32,000 nucleotides of DNA from Candidatus Nanosynbacter lyticus (GTDB taxonomy: Bacteria > Patescibacteriota > Saccharimonadia > Saccharimonadales > Saccharimonadaceae): NCBI RefSeq assembly GCF_030253515.1, contig NZ_CP124549.1, forward strand, positions 660,001 through 692,000. Reading direction: 5' to 3'. Below, piece by piece: positions 6,293-31,335 of the stretch. The notes beneath the pieces are model-generated. The model made no database searches. It was not told where the DNA came from and was given only the letters and a program-made list of their open reading frames with translations. Within the stretch, counting starts at the first letter, position 1, and each line of letters begins with the position of its first letter. The translations under genes and the position numbers were made by a program.

Positions 6293-6366
6293 TCGCGAAC
6301 CGAGCCATTAACGAACCACAAAACTATGATAAGGTGATGTGACCAACCTCCCGCTAGCAATAAGAA

Positions 6367-6783
6367 TTACTCTAACGAGCCGTCCTGACCTTGTGTTGTC
6401 GCGCCGCCGGCGCCATTGCCGCCACCATTGACACCCAGCTGATCATCACTCAACACATTGCTAGCAAATGCCCGCGCACCGTCGGCCTTTTTTTCTTCTT
6501 GTTTGTATTTTTGCAGGAAATCATTCAATACCCTACCTGTCACCTCGCCCTGCGCCTCAAACATATCCCGATTACGATCGTTGGAGTTATCAATCTGCGC
6601 CCGATACGGTACATAATCCGGTCGGCTTAAATCCACTCTGAAAGCATCTGACGAATAGTATAAGTGCATCGAGATACCAACGAGCACGATCGACACCACA
6701 ATTACGCTAATTACCATCGTCGGTAATTTATGTTGCATAGTCAGCTCGACCAACCGGCGACTGAGTTGCTTGAGCTTATCCAC
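6367..6783 (-). CDS. Hypothetical membrane-anchored protein with a Gly-rich C-terminus
   Basis: 138-aa ORF with a single N-terminal TM helix (LPTMVISVIVVSIVLVGISMHLYY). It overlaps the upstream ORF by 8 nt, which suggests an operon. I recognise no family. Confidence 0.55.
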   Translation of the reverse strand: MDKLKQLSRRLVELTMQHKLPTMVISVIVVSIVLVGISMHLYYSSDAFRVDLSRPDYVPYRAQIDNSNDRNRDMFEAQGEVTGRVLNDFLQKYKQEEKKADGARAFASNVLSDDQLGVNGGGNGAGGATTQGQDGSLE

Positions 6784-7318
6784 GACTACCTCCGCTTGAT
6801 AGTTTCACTTTGAGCTGCTCCACCGCCACGCGGTAATCCGCCGCCAGTTTACTCATCGTCGTCACCGATTCGCTGACCTGCCGACGTGCATCGCGCGTCT
6901 TGATCAGCTGCGCATAAAACTCGCCCGGCTTGTCGCTACAATCCGTCTTGACTAGTGCCGCCAAATTGGACTCATACTCATTGTATTGCTGAGCAAACGC
7001 CTTGCGCGCCTCTTCGTAGTCGCGAGCGATCATCACCATTCGCGAGCTGTCAACCTGCGCCAATGCCAAACGGCTATTTAGTTTGGCGATGAGATTAGTC
7101 GAGATTGTGTTGTATGCTTGGCCGGCGTTAACCCGCAGCAAGGCGTCGTTATGCTGAATCCGCTGTAATGTCGAACGAATAGACTGACACTGGCTGCGGA
7201 TCAGATGGAGCGGCGGCGAACTCGGCGCAGTCTGTGCCATAGCAATACCCGACCGTATCATTACGCCGGCCAGGCTAATACCGCACACAAAAAACGCGAG
7301 ACTACGAAGATGTTTCAT
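6776..7318 (-). CDS. Hypothetical secreted alpha-helical protein
   Basis: 180-aa ORF with a signal-peptide-like N-terminus (MKHLRSLAFFVCGISLAGV...AMAQT). The remainder is helix-rich. I recognise no family. Confidence 0.55.
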   Translation of the reverse strand: MKHLRSLAFFVCGISLAGVMIRSGIAMAQTAPSSPPLHLIRSQCQSIRSTLQRIQHNDALLRVNAGQAYNTISTNLIAKLNSRLALAQVDSSRMVMIARDYEEARKAFAQQYNEYESNLAALVKTDCSDKPGEFYAQLIKTRDARRQVSESVTTMSKLAADYRVAVEQLKVKLSSGGSRG

Positions 7319-16440: not shown

Positions 16441-17019
16441 TCATTTCTTCAGCGCCTCGGTCACTCGTTGCGCCGTCGGCAGATTAACATCAACATTCTC
16501 AAGCGCCTTGGTAGCATCAGCCAAGGTGTAGCCCAACGCCATCAACGCCTCCAGTGCTTCGTCAGAGGTGTTCAGTTCGGTCTGGACTATAGTTTCTACT
16601 CGACCATACTGCGTCGGCAAACCAACCTTATCACTCAAATCAACCACCACTCGTTCGGCAGTTTTTTTACCGACGCCAGCAGCTTTTTGCACGAAGGCGC
16701 TATCGGCGTTGGCAATGGCATTACGCACCTGCTCCGCATCACCGAGGCTGAGAATTGCTAACGCGGCCTTTGGACCAACCCCCTGAACGGTGATTAGCAT
16801 TTCAAACAGCTTCTTTGCCGCCAGGCTCGAGAAACCAAACAATTCTTCCGCCTGCTCGCGCACATGATGATAGGTGTAAAACTTAGCGTCTTGATCCAGC
16901 GTCACCGCCTCGAAATCACCAGCCGATACGCTAACTTCATAGCCGACGCCGTGAACGTCAATCACGATGCTGCCCGCGCCAAACTTCTCAGCGATCATAC
17001 CAGAGAGATGGGCGATCAC
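16441..17019 (-). CDS. ruvA: Holliday junction DNA helicase subunit RuvA
   Basis: 192 aa reading MIAHLSGMI...VIDVHGVGYEV (OB domain), with HhH motifs (LITVQGVGPKAALAIL, AAGVGKKTAERVV). The GTG start overlaps the PBP stop (GTGA). Confidence 0.9.
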   Translation of the reverse strand: MIAHLSGMIAEKFGAGSIVIDVHGVGYEVSVSAGDFEAVTLDQDAKFYTYHHVREQAEELFGFSSLAAKKLFEMLITVQGVGPKAALAILSLGDAEQVRNAIANADSAFVQKAAGVGKKTAERVVVDLSDKVGLPTQYGRVETIVQTELNTSDEALEALMALGYTLADATKALENVDVNLPTAQRVTEALKK

Positions 17020-19442
17020 GGTCGTCTGTCTCCGCCGCCCGGAGGATTGGTCGGGCCGGGCGAAGTGCCGCCGCTGCCACCGCCTGAACCGCCGCCGCTA
17101 CCGCCGCCACTGCCATTGCCGCCGCCTGGATTTTGGTCGTCATCGCCAGTACTGCCACACGACGCAGTCTTTCGCGAATGCTTCGTCGCATCAAATTTGT
17201 CTTCGCTGATGGTGATGAGACGCCTAGTAGCTAGATCACAGACGGTGATCTGCTTAGTAGTGGACGTCTGCCGACAATCAGCAGCGTTCTTGGAATATTT
17301 AGCGGCATCAAACTGATCTTCAAAAATTGACTCTATTTGCTTGGTCGCGAGGTTACATACCTCGATCTTTGACTTAGTTTGGTCACATTTCTCGGTTGGG
17401 ATGGCGCTCGAGAGGAAGTATTCTTTGTAAGCACCGGGACTGGAATCATCAGCGAGGCCGCCATTACTACTACAGACACTTCGCTGGACAACGCCGTTTG
17501 GTACGTCAAAACCAGTTTTCGTGCCCGCCAGCAGCTTGGTCATCGTCGCCCGCCAAATTGGCGCCGCCACATCCGATCCACCGCTGTTCATGACTTTATT
17601 GTCATTATTACCAACCCACACGCCGACCGCATATTGCGGCGTATAGCCAATCGTCCAGGCATCGCGGTTATCATTGGTGGTACCCGTCTTGACAGCGACC
17701 GTCTTGCCACTCACCGTCAGGCTGCTGCCAAATATCCCTGCCCGCGCGGCATTATCCGACAGAATGCTAGAGATGAGATAGGCGCCGCCCTGGCTAATGG
17801 CTTGACGCGTATTGGCTGTTTTCCACGAAGCGTTTTTGTTGAACTTATCCTTGACTTCGGTGATGAGATTCAGCGATTCGTACTGCGTGCCGCCATTGGC
17901 AAAGGCCGCGTAGGCGTTGGTCATTTCGCTCAGGCGCACCTCGGCCGAACCAAGCGCCAGTGACAATCCGTAATTTTTGTTTTCATCAAGGGTGCTAATG
18001 CCGAGTTTCTTAGCCGCTTGGATGGAACGATTAATGCCATACTTTTGCATGATCAGAACGCTTGGGATATTTAGTGACCAGCTGAGCGACTTGCGCGTCG
18101 TCACCTTGCCGTTCCAGCGGCGGGTAGCATTGTACGGTACGTAGCCATTAAAGTCAGTCAATTTATCATCAAAAACTGTCGCCGGCGTGATGGCGCCATC
18201 AGCCATCGCCTGCGCATAATACAGCGGCTTGAAGCTCGAGCCGGGCTGACGCGGCGTGGTCACCATATTGACCTTGCCCCACTCGGCGTTATTATAATCA
18301 GCGCTGCCGACCAGTGCCCGCACCTCGCCGGTTTTTGGATCAATGACGATACCGCTGGCGTTGGTGCCACCGAGGCGATTGATCTGCTTCATTTGTTTGG
18401 CGATATTCTCTTGGAGGAGCTGTTGGGTGTCGAGATTCAGCGAGGTCTTGACGCGGTAGCCCGAGCGCATGACTTTTTCGTAGCCATATTTGTCGCTGAG
18501 CTGTTTGATGACCATCTCGGCAAAATGCGGCGCTGCGGAATTCGTGTGAGCCGCGCCGCCACCAGTATATGCTAGCTGTGTGGCTTCCGCCTGCTGCTTC
18601 TGCTCCTCGGTGATGAAGCCTTCTGTCTGCATCCGACCGAGCACCGTCTTTTGGCGCTGCTTGGCATATTCAGCATTGCCGCTGATCGGTGAATAGCGGC
18701 TTGGCGCCGGCAGTACACCAACTAGCATACTGCTCTCGGCCAGTGTCAAATCCTTCGGCGACTTATTGAAATACACCTTGGCCGCTTCCTCGATACCAAA
18801 GGCATTTTCGCCAAAGTACACTGAGTTGAGGTACATCATCAAGATCTGCTCTTTACTATAATTCTGTTCAATGGCGATGGCCATAAATAGCTCTTGGTAT
18901 TTGCGCATAAAGCTATGCTCATTGCTGAGCAAGTTATTCTTGACCAACTGCTGCGTCAAGGTCGACCCGCCACCGTGCCGCGTAATCGCCGCTCGGAAAA
19001 TACTAAAGATATTAAAGCCGCTGTGCTTATAAAAATCTTTATCCTCACTGGCGATCAGCGCCTTTTTCATACTCTCAGAGATGTCTTTGAGCTGCACCAA
19101 GTTCCGCCGCTCGGCATTACCAACGCTATAAATCACCTTATCCTTGGCGTCAGTCAGCACGATACCGGTATTATTGCGGTTCATCAGCCGCTCCTGATCA
19201 CCGATATCGCGCGCATAATAAAAATAGCTAGCAATCGGCACAATGATCAAGAACAATAGAATTGGTAGCAGGCACACCATAATTTTTTTCGGCCGACTCA
19301 GTCGCCAAAACCACAAAAAGTGTTTGTGTTGACGCGGTAATTTACCAGATTTCGCCTTGACTTGACCGAGATTGGCATACCGACCCATGTGCGGTGGTTG
19401 CTTCTTTATCGGAGCTCGTTTTCCCTTGCCTAATTGCACCAT
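17016..19442 (-). CDS. Class A penicillin-binding protein (glycosyltransferase plus transpeptidase) with a repeat- and Gly-rich C-terminal extension
   Basis: GT51 motifs are ASEDKDFYKHSGF and GGSTLTQQLVKN. Transpeptidase motifs are SSFKP, SWSLN (SxN) and KTGTT. An N-terminal TM anchor is present. 808 aa. Confidence 0.9.
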   Translation of the reverse strand: MVQLGKGKRAPIKKQPPHMGRYANLGQVKAKSGKLPRQHKHFLWFWRLSRPKKIMVCLLPILLFLIIVPIASYFYYARDIGDQERLMNRNNTGIVLTDAKDKVIYSVGNAERRNLVQLKDISESMKKALIASEDKDFYKHSGFNIFSIFRAAITRHGGGSTLTQQLVKNNLLSNEHSFMRKYQELFMAIAIEQNYSKEQILMMYLNSVYFGENAFGIEEAAKVYFNKSPKDLTLAESSMLVGVLPAPSRYSPISGNAEYAKQRQKTVLGRMQTEGFITEEQKQQAEATQLAYTGGGAAHTNSAAPHFAEMVIKQLSDKYGYEKVMRSGYRVKTSLNLDTQQLLQENIAKQMKQINRLGGTNASGIVIDPKTGEVRALVGSADYNNAEWGKVNMVTTPRQPGSSFKPLYYAQAMADGAITPATVFDDKLTDFNGYVPYNATRRWNGKVTTRKSLSWSLNIPSVLIMQKYGINRSIQAAKKLGISTLDENKNYGLSLALGSAEVRLSEMTNAYAAFANGGTQYESLNLITEVKDKFNKNASWKTANTRQAISQGGAYLISSILSDNAARAGIFGSSLTVSGKTVAVKTGTTNDNRDAWTIGYTPQYAVGVWVGNNDNKVMNSGGSDVAAPIWRATMTKLLAGTKTGFDVPNGVVQRSVCSSNGGLADDSSPGAYKEYFLSSAIPTEKCDQTKSKIEVCNLATKQIESIFEDQFDAAKYSKNAADCRQTSTTKQITVCDLATRRLITISEDKFDATKHSRKTASCGSTGDDDQNPGGGNGSGGGSGGGSGGGSGGTSPGPTNPPGGGDRRP
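17160..17366 (-). repeat. Two tandem ~30-aa Cys-bracketed repeats in the PBP C-terminal extension
   Basis: IEVCNLATKQIESIFEDQFDAAKYSKNAADC pairs with ITVCDLATRRLITISEDKFDATKHSRKTASC. A (GGGS)n / Pro-rich tail follows, encoded at 17019-17126. Confidence 0.7.
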
Positions 19443-20006: not shown

Positions 20007-21899
20007 TTATCGCTTGCCGCGCGTGATGGCGTGTTTTAGCCGCGTAGCAGCCCGGCCAATTTCCCAGCGCCACTGCCAGCCAGCGTAGCCAACCGCCAGC
20101 AGACTGACGCCGCCGAGCACCCACCAGCCCCACATCGCGCCTGTCACCTGCTTGACCTGCTCCGGTGCAAAGCCAGTTTTTGGTGCAGTAGCCAGCGCGA
20201 CCTTGCGGCAGCGCTTTGTCTTTGGATTGCGCTCAAAGCCTTCGGCACACTCCTTCAACACGTCACTATCAGCGGCAATTTTCTTACAGCGTCCGGTAGC
20301 GGGATTACGAAACTTACCATCGGGACATGGCTTCAGGGTTTTGGCGGCTGTGGCTGCAATCGACCGACACCGACCGGTTATCTCGCTCCGATAGTACCCT
20401 TCACGACACGGCGTTTGGGTTTTGAGCTTGCCGATGTTGCGACACCGACCGGTTTCTAGTGAACGATACTGACCGGGCTTACACGGCGCGAGTTCCGGCT
20501 CGCGTACGATATTACGGCAGCGGCCCGTTGTTGGTGAACGGTACTGCCCCGGACGGCACGGCGTCGGCACTGGCTCCACCGGCTCCTTGACGCAGCGACC
20601 CGTGAGCTCGTGACGCACATAGCCCGCCTTGCAATCTGGCCACTGCTTGAATTCATTAGGCCGAGCCGGCGTCGGTGAAAATGTCACCTTCCATTCCCCG
20701 TCAAGCAGGCTCCACGACGAGTCCTTGGCCAGGCCAGTAAATGACGTCTGGTCGATCTCATTGCCACTAGCATCCAGCGCGTACACCTCGCCGCCACCGG
20801 TTTTTGTCAGTTTGAGATTTGTCTCTGCCAGCCGAACGACATGCAGCGCCCCGGCTGCCAGCTCAATACTTCTGAATATATGGGTCGTATCCTTATGCTT
20901 GCCCTGACCCTTCACGAGAATGGTGCAGCCCGTGAGGTCGAGGTCGCTGGTCCCGGCGTTAATAATCTCGATAAACGGCGCGTCAACGTTGGTCGCGATC
21001 TCATGTAATTTCAAGCCGCTGCAGCGATTGCTCGGTGGCGTCGGATCAACTGGCGGACGCGGCTCGTCAGGCTCACTGCACGCTGGCAGTTCACGTAGAC
21101 GCGGCGCCTCACCGACCGAAAAATCGCTGACGTTATTATCCGTATCAGTCACCACGCCATTTGTTTGGCAGCGCCAGGCGTGTAGCTTGCCGCCCAGCGT
21201 AATCGGACTGCCTTCGCGCTCTGATGCCGTGCCCCAGCCGACCAGATCCGACACCCGCCCATCACTCATCACCAACTTGACAGAGCCGCCGGTTTTTGCC
21301 AGTACTTTCTGGCTATCAAACCGCAGGTCGGCCTGCTCGGCAGGTAGCCGGCTATCACCGACCACCAACGCCCCGCCCGCCGGCACCATTAGGTCAGTCG
21401 ATATTGTTTTAAGCACTGTCACATGCCCCTTTTGGTTAACATACTGCAGCGTCCAGCCAGCGATATTGACTGGCCCTGGCGACGGATTGTAGAGTTCGAC
21501 GTACGCGCCGCGCGCTGTATCGAGGCCAATTTTAGTGATCAAGAGTTTAGCCGATGTACGAGCCGCAGCTGGTGGCGCAGGAGGTTCGGAAGGCGTTGGC
21601 TTAACTGGTGTGGGTGTCGATGGATCTCTGGGTGGCATCGACGGAGCAGGCGTAGACGTAGATGCAGACGTACTGCCAGAAGTCGTGTCCGGTGTAGCCA
21701 CTGCTGGGACTGATGGCCTGGTCGGGCTGGGTGCTGGATTGGCTGGGCGCGGCGCGGGCGTGTGGGTTGGCGCAACCGGTGTCGAGCCGCTAGCAGGAGG
21801 TGCGGCCTCTGGTGGGGAGTCGCTCGCAAACGCCACCACCGGCTGAAACACCAGCGCAATTATCGTTGACATAAGTAGTAGGCGGGTCAAAACCTTCAT
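20007..21899 (-). CDS. Cell-surface protein: signal peptide, Pro/Thr/Ser linker, two lamin-tail domains (LTD), six Cys-pair basic repeats, C-terminal TM anchor
   Basis: The signal peptide ends VVAFA/SD. LTD-like segments are LLITKIGLDTARGAYVELYNPSPGPVNIAGWTL and LKLHEIATNVDAPFIEIINAGTSDLDLTGCTI. The C-terminal TM helix is AMWGWWVLGGVSLLAVGYAGWQW, followed by a basic tail. Confidence 0.8.
   Translation of the reverse strand: MKVLTRLLLMSTIIALVFQPVVAFASDSPPEAAPPASGSTPVAPTHTPAPRPANPAPSPTRPSVPAVATPDTTSGSTSASTSTPAPSMPPRDPSTPTPVKPTPSEPPAPPAAARTSAKLLITKIGLDTARGAYVELYNPSPGPVNIAGWTLQYVNQKGHVTVLKTISTDLMVPAGGALVVGDSRLPAEQADLRFDSQKVLAKTGGSVKLVMSDGRVSDLVGWGTASEREGSPITLGGKLHAWRCQTNGVVTDTDNNVSDFSVGEAPRLRELPACSEPDEPRPPVDPTPPSNRCSGLKLHEIATNVDAPFIEIINAGTSDLDLTGCTILVKGQGKHKDTTHIFRSIELAAGALHVVRLAETNLKLTKTGGGEVYALDASGNEIDQTSFTGLAKDSSWSLLDGEWKVTFSPTPARPNEFKQWPDCKAGYVRHELTGRCVKEPVEPVPTPCRPGQYRSPTTGRCRNIVREPELAPCKPGQYRSLETGRCRNIGKLKTQTPCREGYYRSEITGRCRSIAATAAKTLKPCPDGKFRNPATGRCKKIAADSDVLKECAEGFERNPKTKRCRKVALATAPKTGFAPEQVKQVTGAMWGWWVLGGVSLLAVGYAGWQWRWEIGRAATRLKHAITRGKR
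20202..20633 (-). repeat. Six tandem copies of a C-x2-G-x2-R-x5-[GK]-R-C-[RKV] motif (period about 22-27 aa) within the LTD protein
   Basis: The copies are CKAGYVRHELTGRCVKE, CRPGQYRSPTTGRCRNI, CKPGQYRSLETGRCRNI, CREGYYRSEITGRCRSI, CPDGKFRNPATGRCKKI and CAEGFERNPKTKRCRKV. The DNA shows a recurring CGACACCGACCGGTT-type segment. Confidence 0.75.
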
Positions 21900-22735: not shown

Positions 22736-22792
22736 GTGTCCATACCTCCAGAAAATTCGTTTCTTTTAGTATAGCAGAAAACGGGCGAGGGG

Positions 22793-23674
22793 TTAACTGT
22801 CGAGCCGATCAGTGGTGTTTTCTGGAAAGGTAAAGCCGCCGCAATCTGATTCTATATATACCCCTTTAACGGGTGTATCATTGAAGGCTTTTTCGTCCTT
22901 AATGCGCAACCCATATTGAGAGGAGATGATCCCCTCATGGACATACAAACCCAGCATCCCTGCGACATATCCCACGGCCGCGTTGTCGTTATTCTGCTGC
23001 AAAATACCCAATGGGACTTGTATGGCAGGACAGTGGGCGTCCTCTGGCAAAGTCACATCAGAACCTACTAAATATGCCTTGGGAAGTGATTCATCTAACT
23101 TTGACACCCAGATATCGGAATCATCGTGCTCGAGATCCATAACCTTCCGTAAAACCTTTTTTCGACGCCGAGAATTATCCTCAGCAATCCCCACCACAAG
23201 ATCCGATACGCTTATCTCATAGGAGTTCAACCCAGCCTGTCCTCGCCGCATATTCAAGTCACCGATAAACTGATACATAATTGCATCGCTAAGCTTATCG
23301 GATTCAACAAGAGGCACTATTACCTCTCGCATCCTCTCTAAGTACTTTTCTTCAATTGCGGCTTGAGCAGTCTGTACTGCTTCCTTAGTGTGCAGGTCCT
23401 CTCCGTCTGTCGGGGCCTTATTCTCAGCGCGCTGCCTAGTGACTTCTTCCAGGTACTCATTACGTACCTTGGTAATTTCATCACATATTGCGTTTAGCTG
23501 CCGAGGTGTCATTGGCCCGCCCAGCTCCTGCGTCTCATCGTCTTGTGCATCACTATAGCCCTCAACCCCGCTAGACCGTTGCTCACCATAATTATTCGAT
23601 ACGGCCGCTAGCCTCTCCCATAAATCCATTGGACCTTGATCGCCGCTATTTCCATCTATTCTATCTATACTCAC
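22793..23674 (-). CDS. Hypothetical acidic cytoplasmic protein, downstream member of a tandem paralog pair
   Basis: GTG start at 23674, 5 nt after GGGAGGAG. 293 aa with no TM helix or signal peptide. The N-terminal half is charged and helical. It shares the block VGIAEDNSRRRKKVLRKVMDLEHDDSDIWV and HCPAIQVPLGIL with the upstream ORF. Confidence 0.7.
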   Translation of the reverse strand: MSIDRIDGNSGDQGPMDLWERLAAVSNNYGEQRSSGVEGYSDAQDDETQELGGPMTPRQLNAICDEITKVRNEYLEEVTRQRAENKAPTDGEDLHTKEAVQTAQAAIEEKYLERMREVIVPLVESDKLSDAIMYQFIGDLNMRRGQAGLNSYEISVSDLVVGIAEDNSRRRKKVLRKVMDLEHDDSDIWVSKLDESLPKAYLVGSDVTLPEDAHCPAIQVPLGILQQNNDNAAVGYVAGMLGLYVHEGIISSQYGLRIKDEKAFNDTPVKGVYIESDCGGFTFPENTTDRLDS

Positions 23675-23708
23675 TGCTCTCCTCCCAAAATTATTGAACC
23701 GTATGACA

Positions 23709-24512
23709 TCAGAAGCATTCAGCCTCTACGGCTATGATGAAACAGCGATTTGGCCTAAGCTTGCCAAAAGGCCACCCAAAACAATAGGTAAAGTCAATAT
23801 CGAATGGTGAGTCCGGGTATAGCCTAATAGAAACTGGTGGTATCAAACCCTTCTCAGTGAATTCTGCTAGCTTACAGGCGATCCTTTCTTTAGTCTTACT
23901 ACGATCCTCGTCTTCCTTCCACTTTCCGGGCCTTTCGCTTTTAAGCTCTTTGAAATCTTTACCAAGATAGAGTATAGGAACTATTGTGCTGCAGCCATAG
24001 CGGTCCGGAAAACCCCCCTCCTCTTTGTCGCGCAAACTCTCATCAATTGTTAGCACTGAATAATATGTTGAACGACCACTCTCAGGATCATTATACCAAG
24101 CCAAATCATCTCCTCCTATGCCCTGTGTTAGATCTTTTATTAGATCACTCCGTTCACGATTTGCGGATTCGGCGATACCTCGCGCAAATCTCAAAAATGA
24201 CAAATCAACACCTAGTTTCTCCCTCTCTTGGTCCATCTGCCTAATGGTCTTGTCTTTCTCATAGTCTAGCGCTGATAATGCACTAATTACGTTAAGGATC
24301 TCCATATCTATCTTTTCTACAGCAAGTTCAAACTGCTCATGCTTAGGAAGCAGGTAGCCCGTCACCGCACTTCGTAGTGCTTCATTCCCCATCTCTATCC
24401 GACGCTCTTTATCCTTTTCACACTCCCGCTGAAAAGCTTCGCCCTTCGCGTCAATACGTGCAACATCAGCCTGCATGCCTTCCAGAATACCTCGCATACA
24501 CTTTTCATTCAT
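23709..24512 (-). CDS. Hypothetical acidic cytoplasmic protein, upstream member of a tandem paralog pair
   Basis: I prefer the ATG at 24512 (MNEKCMRG), 5 nt after GGAGGAG. The track start at 24584 has no SD. 267 aa. It shares the block RGIAESANRERSDLIKDLTQGIGGDDLAWY and GCSTIVPILYL with the downstream ORF. Confidence 0.7.
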   Translation of the reverse strand: MNEKCMRGILEGMQADVARIDAKGEAFQRECEKDKERRIEMGNEALRSAVTGYLLPKHEQFELAVEKIDMEILNVISALSALDYEKDKTIRQMDQEREKLGVDLSFLRFARGIAESANRERSDLIKDLTQGIGGDDLAWYNDPESGRSTYYSVLTIDESLRDKEEGGFPDRYGCSTIVPILYLGKDFKELKSERPGKWKEDEDRSKTKERIACKLAEFTEKGLIPPVSIRLYPDSPFDIDFTYCFGWPFGKLRPNRCFIIAVEAECF

Positions 24513-24672
24513 TTCACTCCTCCGAACTAAGTAATGTATAGTTGCCTCACCAGCCGCCCGAGGGCCAAACCCGTGCTCACTCACCCCGAGTGATTAGCTG
24601 AATGAACCCATAGTAGTACATCCATCAGGTTTCCTCAAGCATGAGCGGGATAGCCTACCACAATCGTCCACG

Positions 24673-26127
24673 CTACTCAACCACATTACTCTCACGCAGT
24701 CGCAGCCCGGTCTGTCGCCGCATCCACCACATTGCCCCGATAATGACGAGGTAGACCACGACCGCCCACAGCCAGCTCAAGTTCACCTCCAGCTGCGCCC
24801 AGTCCAGCCCCGCCAGCCACGTGGCGATGCCGACTATATACTGGAGTAGCCACGTCGTCGGCGCAGCGACGAGCCCAGCCACCACCGGCACATCCGCGCA
24901 CACACCAACCACAAAGGTCAGTAGCATCGCTAGCGGCACCAATGGCAAAATGAGTATATTCGCGATCAGTGCCACGTTACTGATCACGCCAAACGACGCC
25001 ACCAAGAGCGGCCACGTCATGATCTGGGCCGACACCGTCTCGCCGATAATCTGCCGGATCACCCCGGGCGGCTTCGCACCAAAAAAGTATCGCTGCAGCA
25101 GCGGCGCCAGGATAATCACCCCGCTAAACGCCGCAAAGCTCAATTGCCAGCCGAGGTCGTTCCAGCCAAACTGTGGATTGATAAGTAGCGTCATCGCCGC
25201 AGCGACCGGCAGCAGCACTAGCGGATGAATCGTCCGGCCATAATACCACGCGGCTAGGCTCAGGCCCGCCACCAGCCCGGCCCGCGACATGCTCGGACTG
25301 AGGCCGGTCATCGCCATAAAGCCAATGATCATCACACCAGCGCTCAGCGCCGCCAGATATTTCGACACCCGAACGAACAGTCGCCGCGCCAGCCGCACTA
25401 AAATTGTTAAGTTATAGCCACTTGCTACGATGACGTGCGTCAAACCTGCGACCTGCAGCGCCGTCATCAATTCCAGCGGCAATGCCCGCCGCAAGCCCAT
25501 CAAGAACCCGAGGCCCAGTGCCGCCTCCGACTCCGGCACGTACCGCCGCACCCGCTCCGCAAACCAGTCACGGACGCCCACCGCCACGTCACCCGGTTGC
25601 TCGCGCGTCACTCGTTCAACCGCTGCCCGTGACATCCGCGCCGCAAACGCCCCAAACCCATCGGTCAGCGCGCCCCGAACCGTGACCACGTCGCTGCGTT
25701 TAATCGCCTGGTTATGCCTCGTCACCACCCAGACACTGCCAGGCAGCCGCCGATCATTACTCATGATATCACCCAGGCGCAGCACTGTCTGCCCCTTTTT
25801 ATCAACATCAGGATCTTCCAGCACCCGCCCGCTCAGCCGTACCATTTGACCGATCAGCGTTTGATAGTGCTCCAGGCCAATCTGCCCCACACTACCTCGC
25901 CACAGCCCAACCAGCACCCCACCGACTAGAGCTACTACGACCAGCCAGCGCCGCGCCCCAACGAGCGACGCTAGGGCCAATACCATTCCCGCCCCCAACC
26001 ACATCCAACCAGCAAACAGCCCGTACGGCGCTCGCATCACGCTGATAACACCGATAACGATGCCGACACCAGCCGCCGCCAACAGCCACGACACATGCAA
26101 ACGCTGGGTGAGGCCGAGAGACTTCAT
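24673..26127 (-). CDS. comEC: ComEC/Rec2 DNA internalisation channel, short form (no metallo-beta-lactamase domain)
   Basis: 484-aa polytopic membrane protein. An N-terminal OB-like segment (VRLSGRVLEDPDVDKKGQTVLRL...VWVV) is followed by the competence-domain motif AGLTHVIVASGYNLTIL. The ORF ends right after the last TM helix. Confidence 0.85.
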   Translation of the reverse strand: MKSLGLTQRLHVSWLLAAAGVGIVIGVISVMRAPYGLFAGWMWLGAGMVLALASLVGARRWLVVVALVGGVLVGLWRGSVGQIGLEHYQTLIGQMVRLSGRVLEDPDVDKKGQTVLRLGDIMSNDRRLPGSVWVVTRHNQAIKRSDVVTVRGALTDGFGAFAARMSRAAVERVTREQPGDVAVGVRDWFAERVRRYVPESEAALGLGFLMGLRRALPLELMTALQVAGLTHVIVASGYNLTILVRLARRLFVRVSKYLAALSAGVMIIGFMAMTGLSPSMSRAGLVAGLSLAAWYYGRTIHPLVLLPVAAAMTLLINPQFGWNDLGWQLSFAAFSGVIILAPLLQRYFFGAKPPGVIRQIIGETVSAQIMTWPLLVASFGVISNVALIANILILPLVPLAMLLTFVVGVCADVPVVAGLVAAPTTWLLQYIVGIATWLAGLDWAQLEVNLSWLWAVVVYLVIIGAMWWMRRQTGLRLRESNVVE

Positions 26128-26225: not shown

Positions 26226-26302
26226 TGGAGGGCCCACCGGGGCTTGAACCCGGGACACCCTGCTTAAAAGGCAGGTGCTCTAACCAGCTGAGCTATGGGC
26301 CC
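26226..26302 (-). tRNA. tRNA-Lys: tRNA-Lys (anticodon UUU), CCA encoded
   Basis: The minus strand reads GGGCCCATAGCTCAGCTGGTTAGAGCACCTGCCTTTTAAGCAGGGTGTCCCGGGTTCAAGCCCCGGTGGGCCCTCCA. It folds as a cloverleaf: 7-bp acceptor, GCTC/GAGC D stem, CCTGC/GCAGG anticodon stem with loop CTTTTAA, and CCGGG/CCCGG T stem with TTCAAGC. Confidence 0.9.
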
Positions 26303-27372: not shown

Positions 27373-28290
27373 TCAGGCGCCGACTTTATCTTTTTTGTTA
27401 CCGCGCTTGGCGTTGCGATCAATATAGTCGATGATTCGACCAGCCACATTGCGGCCCGTGACTTTTTCGATGCCAAATCCTGGACTGGCATTCACTTCTA
27501 ATACCAGCGCCCCACGGTTCGAGCGCATGAAGTCGACGCCGGCCACTACCAAACCCATGGCTTTGGCAGCTTTGATGCACATCTTTCGCTCATCAGGCGT
27601 TAATTTAATGGCGGTTCCCTCGCCGCCCTTATGTAAGTTACTGCGAAAGTCATCATCTAAACTCTGTCGTTTCATGCTAGCTACCACTTGACTACCGACC
27701 ACAAATGCCCGAATATCGGTGCCAGCCGACTCCTTGATAAATTCCTGTAGTAGCACGTTTGTGCCGTCAGAATCACTGAGGTAAAACGCTTGCATAACCG
27801 ACTTAGCGGCTTTAATTGTCTCCGCCAGTACCACGCCATTGCCGTGGGTGCCGCGCGCCAGCTTAATAATCGCCGGCGTACCGCCAATCTCATCCAGCAG
27901 TACATCGATATCCGTTTCATTGCGCGAGAACACCGTCTTTGGGATCGACACCCCAGCCCGGGCCAGCAGCTGCACCGATCGTAGTTTATCGCGCGAACGA
28001 CTGATGGCGATAGACCGATTCATAAAAAATGCTTGCGGATTCGCCATTTCCAATTGCCGCAGCACTGCCGTCCCGTAGCGCGTCATATAGCTAGCAATTC
28101 GCGGGATGAACACGTCAAAGTTACCGATTTCCCTGCCGCGATAAATAACCTTTGGATGCCGCTCATCAATTGACACATAACAATTTTTATACTTGATAAC
28201 TTTAACTCGATGACCACGCTTTTCAGCTTCTTCCTTGAGGCGAAGGGTGGAGTAGTTGATGTTACCGTTAGATAGAATCGCAATATTCAT
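27373..28290 (-). CDS. rimK: RimK-family ATP-grasp alpha-L-glutamate ligase
   Basis: MNIAILSNG...STLRLKEEAEKRGHRV, DKLRSVQLLARAGVSIPKT, IIKLARGTHGNGVVLAE, GTDIRAFVVG and LVLEVNASPG are all present. Length is 305 aa, typical for RimK. Confidence 0.9.
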   Translation of the reverse strand: MNIAILSNGNINYSTLRLKEEAEKRGHRVKVIKYKNCYVSIDERHPKVIYRGREIGNFDVFIPRIASYMTRYGTAVLRQLEMANPQAFFMNRSIAISRSRDKLRSVQLLARAGVSIPKTVFSRNETDIDVLLDEIGGTPAIIKLARGTHGNGVVLAETIKAAKSVMQAFYLSDSDGTNVLLQEFIKESAGTDIRAFVVGSQVVASMKRQSLDDDFRSNLHKGGEGTAIKLTPDERKMCIKAAKAMGLVVAGVDFMRSNRGALVLEVNASPGFGIEKVTGRNVAGRIIDYIDRNAKRGNKKDKVGA

Positions 28291-28292
28291 AA

Positions 28293-28799
28293 CTACGTAT
28301 CCTTTGGTTTATGGTATTTTTTATAAAACTTGTGAGGATTTTTAGCTAGTTCTTTATTTAGCCTTATAGTCTGTGATTTCTTCTGGTTCCTTACTTCATT
28401 CATACTTACGTCAACCAAAAACTTACCGCTTAATGTCCGTCGTCCAATTAGCACTGGAAAATTATGCACAGCCCTATCAGACAGGCTAAATAACGCTTTA
28501 ATCTTCTTGCCAGCCAATATAATGGTAAAATGTGTCCGATATTTTATAATTTCATGGCCAGAGGCGCTCTTAACCATCGCTACCGAATAATCGGTACGCC
28601 GAAACACCTTGCCGTTATAATACGGTGAGCCTTTACCAAATAGCGAGAACTTCAAGACACCGTCTTTATCAACACGAATATTGCTCGCCCACACTGATGA
28701 GCCGTCCGCACCGGTGTCAACCTTAGCCGGCACATTAACCGCCCGCCGACCAAAGTCCACCTTCACATTTCGACCAATGATGGTTTTTTGTGCTGCCAT
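28293..28799 (-). CDS. RimK-associated retropepsin-like protease (COG4067 / Zn_protease family)
   Basis: IGRNVKVDFGRRAVNVPAKVDTGADGSSVWA contains a DTGA aspartic-protease-like motif. It lies 2 nt upstream of rimK, the conserved pairing for this family. Confidence 0.8.
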   Translation of the reverse strand: MAAQKTIIGRNVKVDFGRRAVNVPAKVDTGADGSSVWASNIRVDKDGVLKFSLFGKGSPYYNGKVFRRTDYSVAMVKSASGHEIIKYRTHFTIILAGKKIKALFSLSDRAVHNFPVLIGRRTLSGKFLVDVSMNEVRNQKKSQTIRLNKELAKNPHKFYKKYHKPKDT

Positions 28800-28838
28800 G
28801 CACCATATACTATAATCTAAAAACCTACATCAGTCAAG

Positions 28839-29784
28839 CTACGAAGCTGCTCGTTTGTAGACAGCCGGAACATTAGCAGGCATGCCGACAAGTGGATCAT
28901 AGTACGGCATAAGGCCCGAGGATGCATTTATTTCAACCCTCGGAAATTATCGGGAGCTATAATGTCAACACCGCAGATAAACAGGCCGAAGTATTCAGTA
29001 ACTCGCACAGCCATCTGCTTCACTTCATTCGGTACTTTATTGAGGCACTCTAGCGCATAGCCACCACTAGAAATATTCGCTACACCAGTTACTTGTACTC
29101 GTGTCCCATCGGATGGAATACATCGCAACTCAACATCGCTCAAAAAGCCCGCACGGCCTCTGGGTCAATTAGATTCATGGACTTTTCATGAGGTAGCTGA
29201 CCGCAACGAGGATTTGTCATATTATCCAGGTCAATCAGCTCACGAGTTGTATGCACCCCATCGCCCCAGACTTCTGCGGGACAGCGCTGAATTGCTGCAA
29301 CCACCTCACCGTCTATCACAATAAGCCGATAATCATTTCCCTCAATGTGACGCTGCAGCAGCACACCTCCCTTCCTTACATATTGTTGTGCTCGCTTGAC
29401 TGCCCTTGCAATTCATCTATACGGCGGATATTTGTCGTCACCTCATCCCCATGTGTGGCATCAATGGGCTTCACCACTACCACACCCTGCTCCTCTAAAA
29501 ACTGCTCGGCAACAGCTATATCACCCACTATCACTGAAGGCACTGGCCATTGCTCAAATTCACCCGATTGCACCAAAAGCTTATCAGTCAGCTCTTTGTT
29601 ATCAGAAATTGATCGGCCAGTACCATTAGACACATCTGGTGAGCTGCCCATTATAAATCGCATGCGACCTGCGTAACGAAACGTAATACACGACGCCCCC
29701 GGATTTATAGCCGGCTACCGGGATACTGCGCTTCTTTAGTTCATTATAGATTGCAAGTGATGTCCCTTGTAGTTGATTTGTCAT
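28839..29784 (-). pseudogene. Decayed ATP-grasp ligase gene (cyanophycin-synthetase-N-terminal / RimK-related type) split over five reading-frame segments
   Basis: The segments, N- to C-terminal, each lie in a different frame from their neighbour. (1) MTNQLQGTSLAIYNELKKRSIPV (from the ATG at 29784). (2) RFIMGSSPDVSNGTGRSISDNKELTDKLL...VVVKPIDATHGDEV (29376-29663). (3) LLQRHIEGNDYRLIVIDGEVVAAIQRCPAEVWGDGVHTTRELIDLDN (29140-29364). (4) VANISSGGYALECLNKVPNEVKQMAVRVTEYFGLFICGVDII (28928-29143). (5) EINASSGLMPYYDPLVGMPANV...* (to 28839). Confidence 0.7.
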
Positions 29785-29832
29785 ACAGTGATAGTACCTC
29801 TATTATCTTGTATAAGAATACCCTTCTTGTAC

Positions 29833-31335
29833 CTACGCTGCAAGCGCCCTCATCATCAACTCTTGCTGCCTGGGGTTGGTTGGATCATACTTACCAGCAA
29901 AGAGACGAGTAACTCCATCAACGTCCTGATTAGCGTATAGACTCTCCAAATGTCGCATTGCCAGAACACGCCCCTCAAGATAAGCGAGGTCTTTATTAAA
30001 GGTTAGTGGCGCTACCCCAGGCTGGCGGTCCGCCATATCAGGCTGCGTGCCACGGAAGATCCTTACACAGGACCCATATGCCATTCGCTGCTCTTTATCT
30101 ATCATCTCCTGCGTCACCTCTTGATTATCCTTTAACTTCCCAAGTAGACGATATCGCCACGCTGTCTCGAACACCGTGCGAAAATCTGCACCCTGCTCCG
30201 CCAGCGAGATATTAATGTAGTGGCCAAGTTTTGCAGCTGTCCATTTCGGCACAGTATCACCAATCATTTCCTCAACCGTCGTCGCCAGCCCCTCTTCAAA
30301 GGTCAGGTAATCTGGTCGTGGAGTATCAGTGAACAAACCCATCCCGAGGACCGATAGCTTTGTCTTCAGTCCATTGATTGAACGCTGCCCATGTACTCCA
30401 AATTCGTGTAGTACCTTACGAAACAGCTCATCACTTGTCTTGATCGGCGCTCGCTTCCCACCAACTACCACTGCCATCTCTGGAGATTCCCAAGATAGCG
30501 CAGTCTTATTTTCTACTAGCTTCACCGTTACGCCGCTGGTATGATCAGGGTCGCGCAGATTGATCACTGCTTGAAACGCTTCGACGATATCAGCTGGACC
30601 GCATACATATTCTTCACCACATTCTTTGACTTTCTGGCCCCATAACTCCTGCACCAGCGCCTGAATATCAGCATTGTGCTCAATAATCTGCTCACCAGCC
30701 CACTCCAATGCCTGATTATCCTCAAAGCGAGGAAGTCGTGCTTCATCATCTTCAGCACGGAGCATCGCCGGTATTACCTGGTCCTGCCAGTTAAAGCCAT
30801 TCGCTAACTCATCGTACAAAACCTGTGCGGTCGGGTGATAGGCTTTGCCGTCTAGTATATTCCACAGCTCATTAAGCGCCGCATCACGAATCTCTGGCTG
30901 CGGCTGACCGTATAATTCATGACCAAGCTGTCGAGCTTGCTCCTGCACCTCACTCAACTCTTCTTGATTTCCCCCTTCATGATGTAAAAACTCTAGCTGA
31001 CCGAGCAACTTCACATATTCCATTTCCGCCATGCGAAACGCAAGCGACGAACCAATCGCCTCACGGGATACTGAGTCAGGCTCACGATCAGTCGCCTCTT
31101 CACGAGCTCGACCAAGTGCTATAACACCCTTATCTAGTGCCGACATATCGCGAAGACGCCGGTGTTCAAAGCGAGGATTACGAAACTTCCCAGCGATAAA
31201 GTCCTCTCGCTGATCGAGCGCATTATTAACAAGTTCTGTATACGACTGAAACCCGGCTTCAGGAAGATTGTGAGGATTAATAATCTCTTCAATCGTTCGC
31301 GGTTGGCGCGGTACCATTTCGAGCACTATACTCAT
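29833..31335 (-). CDS. DUF1704 / MATCAP-like putative metallocarboxypeptidase (QEGLA-motif family)
   Basis: 500 aa. The HExxxH motif HEFGVH is encoded at 30391-30408. A downstream FEEGLATTVEE (EGLA motif) sits at 30283-30297, the spacing expected for a gluzincin third ligand. Confidence 0.7.
   Translation of the reverse strand: MSIVLEMVPRQPRTIEEIINPHNLPEAGFQSYTELVNNALDQREDFIAGKFRNPRFEHRRLRDMSALDKGVIALGRAREEATDREPDSVSREAIGSSLAFRMAEMEYVKLLGQLEFLHHEGGNQEELSEVQEQARQLGHELYGQPQPEIRDAALNELWNILDGKAYHPTAQVLYDELANGFNWQDQVIPAMLRAEDDEARLPRFEDNQALEWAGEQIIEHNADIQALVQELWGQKVKECGEEYVCGPADIVEAFQAVINLRDPDHTSGVTVKLVENKTALSWESPEMAVVVGGKRAPIKTSDELFRKVLHEFGVHGQRSINGLKTKLSVLGMGLFTDTPRPDYLTFEEGLATTVEEMIGDTVPKWTAAKLGHYINISLAEQGADFRTVFETAWRYRLLGKLKDNQEVTQEMIDKEQRMAYGSCVRIFRGTQPDMADRQPGVAPLTFNKDLAYLEGRVLAMRHLESLYANQDVDGVTRLFAGKYDPTNPRQQELMMRALAA

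Follow-up and report, generated by a model that had tools for sequence, protein, structure and literature searches.

Here, we analysed a window of 32,000 nucleotides (nt) from Candidatus Nanosynbacter lyticus (contig NZ_CP124549.1, positions 660,001 to 692,000). The Saccharibacteria, to which this organism belongs, are obligate epibionts of oral Actinomycetes and lie within the largely uncharacterised Patescibacteria. Between comEC and yebC the window carries a cassette of two genes, called A and B below, which evolve much faster than their flanks, exchange alleles and are repeatedly broken or lost. Fast change, recombinational diversity and occasional discarding form a signature typical of genes at conflict interfaces. 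We tentatively favour the reading that the pair is a dispensable, non-enzymatic binding module at such an interface, and we prefer a host-facing one.

The interval from the stop codon of comEC to the start codon of yebC corresponds exactly to positions 22736–24672 (1937 bp) and contains two open reading frames (ORFs), both on the minus strand. An earlier note on this DNA had described them as ORFs of 267 and 293 amino acids (aa) that begin at ATG 24512 and GTG 23674 and lie 34 nt apart, and our analysis confirmed this. The features of the locus are as follows.

24673..26127, minus strand: comEC, the upstream flank (PF03772 Competence), 94–96% identical among cassette-carrying genomes
24513..24672, minus strand: leader of 160 nt from the comEC stop to the A start, with promoter-like hexamers and a Shine-Dalgarno (SD) site
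23709..24512, minus strand: gene A, an ORF of 267 aa from an orphan family with 33 homolog clusters
23675..23708, minus strand: A-B spacer of 34 nt, read from the sequence, with the B SD site GGGAGGAG
22793..23674, minus strand: gene B, an ORF of 293 aa from an orphan family with 57 homolog clusters
22768..22796, minus strand: promoter-like TTAACC-17-TATACT of yebC with an upstream TG, found by scan and overlapping the B stop codon
22019..22735, minus strand: yebC, the downstream flank, 97–98% identical among carriers and 92–96% in the listed cassette-less sister species

We compared the evolutionary rates of the cassette with those of its neighbours. Among the carriers, the proteins of comEC, yebC and RimK were 94–98% identical, whereas identity was 48–59% for A and 34–85% for B, and nucleotide identity fell steeply at both cassette edges. 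Nonsynonymous (dN) and synonymous (dS) rates were obtained as Nei-Gojobori estimates. For A, dN/dS was 0.77–1.51 and dS was 0.25–0.50, which is comparable to the dS of comEC (0.21–0.33). For B, dN/dS was 0.33–0.48, and dS was 1.1–1.5 between allele classes and 0.22 within a class, against about 0.3 in the flanks. With a flank dN/dS of 0.01–0.20, the cassette ratios were 3–50 times those of the flanks. Along A, dN/dS was 1–2 at residues 1–156 and 221–259 and 0.5–0.85 in the domain core.

These ratios have to be read together with what is conserved. Under random divergence, a frame of 267 codons such as that of A would stay open with P = 0.03 at 10% divergence and P = 0.0004 at 25%. Intact A alleles carry in-frame indels only, 43 columns of the A alignment are invariant, and in the helical hairpin of A the hydrophobic columns are more conserved than the polar ones (entropy 0.74 vs 1.23, p-value 5.6e-5). 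Because the ORF stays open, the indels keep the frame, and both the 43 columns and the hydrophobic core are conserved, A is not drifting freely; its fold is kept while its surface changes.

The alleles have also been shuffled. Between contigs L005 and L096, identity was 68% in the A hairpin, 96% in the A domain and 36% in B; between the window allele and L096, it was 42%, 69% and 94%, respectively. Alleles of the A domain that are 93–96% identical occur together with B alleles that are only 33–36% identical. Judged from these alignments, the cassette alleles are mosaic, and A and B types reassort freely. The conserved N-terminus of B was considered as a constrained secretion signal and rejected: dS is also low there (0.20 vs about 0.4) and dN/dS is not lower, and for this reason the conservation points to a recombination breakpoint. 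Variation driven by repeats or by a diversity-generating retroelement was rejected as well; no template/variable repeats involving the cassette were found, except one 20-nt inverted match at chance level, and the variation is gene-wide rather than confined to the C-terminus. Saccharibacteria are naturally transformable via ComEC (PMC10633639), and natural transformation would therefore provide a route for the exchange of cassette alleles.

Lesions or absence of B occurred in about 8 of 25 loci, with comEC and yebC intact on the same contigs. In A we found 1-nt deletions (L088, in a T4 run beside a G7 run, and L095), a 4-nt deletion (L100), a frameshift with extra sequence (L103) and a CAG-to-TAG nonsense change (L099). 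Further split A fragments were present inside one protein cluster. B was frameshifted in L093 and L100, and the same near-complete deletion of B was shared by L095, L098 and L099, where the cassette measures 1079–1089 bp compared with 1937–2061 bp elsewhere. Each gene can be found intact without an intact partner: L098 (a 480-kb contig at 24x coverage) has an intact A without B, and L088 and L103 have an intact B with a disrupted A. In a metagenome assembly, a lesion of one base may be no more than an error, but assembly error is not a plausible source of the nonsense change in L099, the 4-nt deletion in L100 or the B deletion common to three contigs. The G7 run followed by the T4 run (GAGGAGGGGGGTTTTCC) lies in gene A at about 24003–24013 (minus strand), and the L088 frameshift is a T4-to-T3 change there; either slipped-strand on/off switching or a mistake in the assembly might explain it.

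The same alleles bear on a toxin/immunity-like function, which the earlier note had thought plausible. A toxin-antitoxin or polymorphic toxin-immunity pair might be suspected from two adjacent, co-transcribed genes of no known family with high allelic diversity. However, the existence of single-gene alleles in both directions and the free reassortment of A and B types disfavour it, no significant toxin or immunity domain was found with Pfam, NCBIfam, PADLOC or PHROGs, and both proteins are large and share one architecture, unlike typical immunity proteins or antitoxins. We regard this explanation as extremely unlikely.

A closer likeness is to hypervariable loci. Surface and contingency genes of Neisseria, Helicobacter and Streptococcus are hypervariable loci diversified by recombination in naturally transformable bacteria. 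Like them, the cassette has conserved flanks at which identity falls steeply, mosaic alleles, deep allele classes and on/off lesions, one of which is in a short homopolymer. Unlike them, its products have no export signals, and neither repeat tracts nor silent donor cassettes were found.

The reading that we tentatively favour can be set out as a series of steps. The cassette entered the space separating the comEC stop from the yebC promoter in an ancestor of one clade of human-oral Saccharibacteria. A and B would form a dispensable two-gene operon with its own conserved, promoter-like leader. Both proteins are predicted to be soluble, acidic and apparently non-enzymatic. In each, about 125 aa of the N-terminal part are helical, and a small alpha/beta domain carries an invariant Glu/Cys motif in its last strand. 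The helical parts would offer a protein-binding surface, probably through A-B pairing or self-pairing; the heteromeric pair proposed in the earlier note is plausible given this architecture. We infer that this surface confronts an antagonist that changes fast, which would favour novelty and at times also gene loss. The antagonist would most likely be the Actinomycetes host of the epibionts, and a phage is the alternative. The analysis itself shows the insertion, its confinement to one clade, the upkeep of fold and ORF, the raised dN/dS, the two old classes of B alleles, mosaic recombination and repeated inactivation; binding, A-B pairing, a part in conflict and who the antagonist is are all inferred.

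What has been reported about the host suits such a role. Hosts use an Esx effector to attack Nanosynbacter and can tell closely related strains apart, and the epibiont-side factors are stated to be unknown (PMC13622651, a 2026 preprint). Saccharibacteria possess an essential type IV secretion system (T4SS) that may export proteins and has no known substrates (PMC10633639, PMC12857230). A more specific proposal is that A and B are the epibiont-side determinants in an arms race between Nanosynbacter and Actinomycetes, either delivered to the host by the T4SS, or serving as target or decoy of the host Esx effector AesB, or acting as the ligand by which the host sensor Esr distinguishes close epibiont strains; in this specific form it is quite improbable. 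If it were true, allelic diversity and on/off state would help to set the strain-level host range. The pair is a concrete candidate for the epibiont side of the host interface, and a testable one, since natural transformation permits engineering.

Several points weigh against a conflict-interface module. Of the bootstrap intervals of A dN/dS for five independent allele pairs, four include 1 and one excludes it (1.04–2.13); because four intervals span 1, gene-wide positive selection on A is not demonstrated, and relaxed constraint on surface residues accounts for most of the A pattern without positive selection. The free reassortment of A and B alleles argues against a tight, allele-specific A-B interface. 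Recurrent pseudogenes are equally well compatible with simple decay. Neither A nor B has a signal peptide, and nothing ties either protein to any secretion system. The neighbours are housekeeping genes (comEC, yebC, ruvC/ruvA, a class A penicillin-binding protein, RimK and aspS), and there is no defence island.

In the main rival explanation, a possible though doubtful one, A and B are young orphan genes under relaxed constraint that arose in this clade or arrived there, with a marginal cytoplasmic function and no antagonist, drifting towards loss. Taxonomically restricted genes usually show high dN/dS, low GC content at third codon positions (GC3) and frequent pseudogenes. The cassette resembles them in its high dN/dS (with the A intervals that span 1), its mildly lowered GC3, its frequent loss (the lesioned or B-less loci, about 8 of 25, and the additional split fragments) and its lack of homologs outside a narrow clade among 1.84 billion representatives. 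However, the ORFs remain open although their nucleotides have diverged by 25–30%, and selection must very probably be at work for this to happen. The invariant A columns and the hydrophobic core are unexpected under drift, as is a leader (promoter and SD site) that is more conserved than the coding sequence. The dS between B classes, which is 3–5 times that of the flanks, needs long maintenance or import of alleles and not drift alone, and the position is fixed in every carrier. Confidently predicted folds, a conserved core and leader and two anciently diverged B classes also set the cassette apart from orphan genes. If the pair is nevertheless a decaying orphan, it would be a clean case of gene birth and death in a reduced genome.

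We then examined the distribution of the cassette. The A and B clusters come from metagenomes, some of them with an NCBI source as well, and the only named genome is that of oral taxon 488. An exhaustive search of the 1.84 billion representatives with the B profile gave ten matches, namely members of the B family, short fragments and one 510-aa protein; the last (E 9e-4) matches in the coiled-coil region only and is probably spurious. The A-profile search found only the A family itself. The gene order comEC>A>B>yebC was seen in all 24 related contigs (L001–L007, L088–L104), apart from B-less alleles and from contigs that break off within the locus.

Cassette-less species were located with yebC as the anchor in GTDB species representatives, and what follows concerns the species among the matches listed. 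In L010, L011, L012, L016 and L017 (yebC 58–92% identical), the comEC stop lies at most 50 bp from the yebC start, and the TATAAT box of yebC comes straight after the comEC stop. In L008 and L009 (yebC 96%, comEC 64–71%), the junction holds an unrelated P-loop ORF of 204 aa, which in L008 is at 6318–6932 (plus strand, GGMPTTGKTT) and in L009 is arranged alike; it matches PF13521/PF13238/PF13671 (AAA_28/AAA_18/AAA_33) below the curated cut-offs. The pair is not a universal core element of the yebC-comEC junction, being absent from these seven (L008–L012, L016, L017) and often broken elsewhere, as the earlier view of it as an inserted cassette would lead one to expect. Because the sister species have the junction either empty or with the P-loop gene, the cassette is a derived insertion, confined to one clade of human-oral Saccharibacteria. 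With the junction empty, filled by a P-loop gene or filled by A-B according to lineage, the comEC-yebC site takes different cargo.

The insertion was also suggested to be an acquired module, clearly richer in A+T than its flanks. Derived it is, relative to the listed sister species, but horizontal acquisition finds no such backing. No donor or relative was found in IMG/VR, INPHARED phages, PLSDB plasmids or data from other lineages, and an origin from a mobile element was rejected for lack of matches in the first three collections. The GC content and GC3 are 0.449 and 0.419 for A and 0.483 and 0.493 for B, whereas the gene means of the window are 0.515 ± 0.045 and 0.555 ± 0.086. Both genes are below the window mean, but A is matched by four other genes with values just as low. 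At the other end stands comEC, with the highest GC content in the window (GC 0.615, GC3 0.729), and it is mostly this neighbour that makes the A+T contrast look large. The cassette does deviate, if only mildly, which is no proof of foreign origin. Horizontal acquisition and origin within the lineage are equally possible.

A variable junction could also indicate an uncharacterised pair acting against phages or mobile elements, in which a coiled coil would sense and a small domain would act as effector, placed where integrated content varies. Like accessory defence genes at hotspots, the cassette occupies a site with changing contents (including a P-loop ATPase-like ORF in L008 and L009), is dispensable and evolves fast, and its cytoplasmic proteins and recurrent loss would suit defence. 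Unlike such genes, it has no meaningful PADLOC match: A gave no match, and the best for B was Csm2 (E 0.0078, 14.5 bits), which is noise. Family-profile searches of A and B found no nuclease, NTPase, Sir2, TIR or other effector domain. The surroundings are housekeeping, inheritance within the clade is strictly vertical at one fixed site, and there is no sign of mobility and no relative in other lineages. A defence role is unlikely on this evidence.

The start and expression signals were read next to these patterns. The ORF list runs gene A upstream to a GTG at 24584. However, the A homologs (31 clusters, 258–274 aa) all begin at the ATG equivalent to 24512, and the leader indels between alleles are 8, 6 and 3 nt, that is, not all multiples of three. 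For these two reasons the GTG at 24584 was ruled out and the true A start is ATG 24512. B starts at GTG 23674, and the GTG is kept in 11 of 11 extracted B alleles. The SD sites are GGAGGAG for A (24523–24517) and GGGAGGAG for B (23686–23679); they are strong, as the earlier note held, but each is separated from its start codon by 4 nt instead of the five that it gave.

In the leader, a −35 element TTGAGG (24638–24633) is followed after a 17-nt spacer by a −10 element TACTAT (24615–24610); these hexamers were read by eye, and the consensus promoter scan did not list them. The mean column identity of the leader is 85% over 7 alleles, above that of the A coding sequence, with long invariant runs. 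This conservation suggests that expression is under selection. A structured RNA in the leader was considered and dropped, since Rfam gave no match and the covariation term was only −0.99 kcal/mol. Just past the comEC stop, at about 24648–24672 (minus strand), most alleles have a hairpin (GCCGTGGAC...GACCACGGC) with G-U pairs changed to G-C in 3 of 7 alleles and no T-run; it may be a weak comEC terminator or processing site. At the other end, yebC keeps its own promoter-like stretch (TTAACC-17-TATACT at 22796–22768), as had been noted before, and this stretch is retained in the B-less alleles L095, L098 and L099.

Both proteins are acidic (isoelectric point 4.98 for A, 4.48 for B) and lack hydrophobic segments of transmembrane (TM) grade, in agreement with what had been read from their translations. 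The coiled-coil-like N-terminal halves described previously are helical in the AlphaFold2 models. For A, the model built with the family alignment is confident (pLDDT 86.5, pTM 0.79). It has an antiparallel helical hairpin (helices 3–82 and 90–129) and an alpha/beta domain (147–265) with strands 147–155, 165–170 and 175–182, a helix 201–220 and strands 227–232 and 258–265. This domain, and with it the protein, ends in an invariant E-C-F/L (VEAECF, in the final strand). For B, the model is fair (pLDDT 69, pTM 0.66), with a disordered region 1–52, four helices within 57–179, an alpha/beta domain 199–276 and a disordered tail; its last strand contains an invariant IES(D/N)CGGF. There are two classes of B alleles, one of about 293 aa and one of about 330 aa with a coiled-coil insert. 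Some B alleles (L090:1125–1943, L091:3824–4651; P0058, P0060–P0062) start about 20 codons later, have 268–277 aa and leave a longer gap behind A. Because such late-start alleles exist, the first 20 or so residues of the disordered B N-terminus seem dispensable.

The question of whether A and B are old duplicates, as had been claimed from collinear C-terminal blocks, received a mixed answer. The blocks themselves do not carry the claim: they score 16.3, within the range of column shuffles (maximum 17.7). BLASTP of A against B is not significant (E 0.41), the hidden Markov models of A and B do not cross-match each other's ORFs, and the B profile did not recover A from the 1.84 billion representatives. 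At full length, however, hhalign aligned 204 collinear columns (E 1e-4, probability 57%) with a score of 38.8, compared with 23.8 and 25.9 for reversed controls; none of 80 block shuffles reached it, their maximum being 29.3. The order of secondary structure is the same in both models (helical part, strands, helix, two strands), and in both families the domain helix is followed by G(L/I)I(P/S)(P/S), which is invariant. Distant homology of A and B is likely, although not proven, and its support is moderate.

The earlier statement that neither protein belongs to a known family has held up. Searches of A and B against Pfam, NCBIfam, PADLOC and PHROGs gave only sub-threshold coiled-coil matches, and hits to GrpE, Beclin, prefoldin, IpaB, DUF349 and Csm2 were dismissed as sub-threshold noise rather than family. 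Single-sequence and profile searches of A and B against PDB sequences gave no match. Foldseek was run with full-length models (A and B against PDB, A against BFVD) and returned nothing at E ≤ 0.001; the best values were 0.057 (A/PDB), 1.2 (B/PDB) and 0.029 (A/BFVD), and generic helical hairpins dominate the matches. The sole database name is 'hypothetical protein FBF27_03785' of Candidatus Saccharibacteria bacterium oral taxon 488. The locus is not mentioned in the strain-variation paper (PMC9040727) or in the transposon-sequencing paper (PMC10633639). In having no family or fold match, the pair is far from any described system, which is not a claim of a new mechanism.

Tandem helical-hairpin proteins raise the question of an Esx/type VII-like pair that heterodimerises and is exported. 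Like EsxA/EsxB, PE/PPE and Schaalia AesA/AesB, the cassette is tandem, co-oriented, acidic, signal-less and fast-evolving, with antiparallel helical N-terminal parts of 110–180 aa that might pair, and N-terminal parts of about 125 aa fit Esx substrates as described in PMC13622651. However, A and B differ from these substrates in having a structured alpha/beta C-terminal domain with the Glu/Cys motif. There was no WXG100, LXG, PE or PPE match and no WxG motif. Four residues beyond Y140, A alleles have E, K, N or S, which means that YxxxD/E is not conserved, and Foldseek found no Esx substrate. For Saccharibacteria, PMC10633639 and PMC12857230 list the type II secretion system, the T4SS and type IV pili, with no Esx. 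An Esx-like export pair is very unlikely.

Other features of the window were also recorded. A 630-aa Lamin Tail Domain protein (20007–21899, minus strand) has a signal-like segment at its N-terminus and a TM helix at its C-terminus, together with a long region rich in Pro, Thr and Ser and six 'TGRCR/K' repeats that are rich in Cys. Its identity is 87–92% among the carriers and about 41–42% in listed sister species with yebC at 92–96%; it is probably a fast-evolving surface protein. An 808-aa class A penicillin-binding protein is encoded at 17019–19442 (minus strand; Transgly E 7e-61, Transpeptidase E 8e-28), and its orthologs in L001, L002 and L005 have no Pfam match in the precomputed annotation.

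Upstream of comEC, a tRNA gene (26229–26302, minus strand, Rfam 70 bits) lies outside the cassette, between comEC and the gene of a 163-aa membrane protein. The cluster at 27373–31335 (minus strand) comprises a RimK-type ATP-grasp ligase (27373–28290), a RimB-like/Zn_protease gene (28296–28799) and a 500-aa MATCAP-like protein (PF08014, 29836–31335). In L005–L007, a second RimK paralog and a 438-aa protein replace the small ORFs of L001 and L002. Over the whole window, GC skew is negative nearly everywhere, reaching a cumulative −7.2, and the minus strand carries about three quarters of the genes, which is consistent with the window lying in one replichore.

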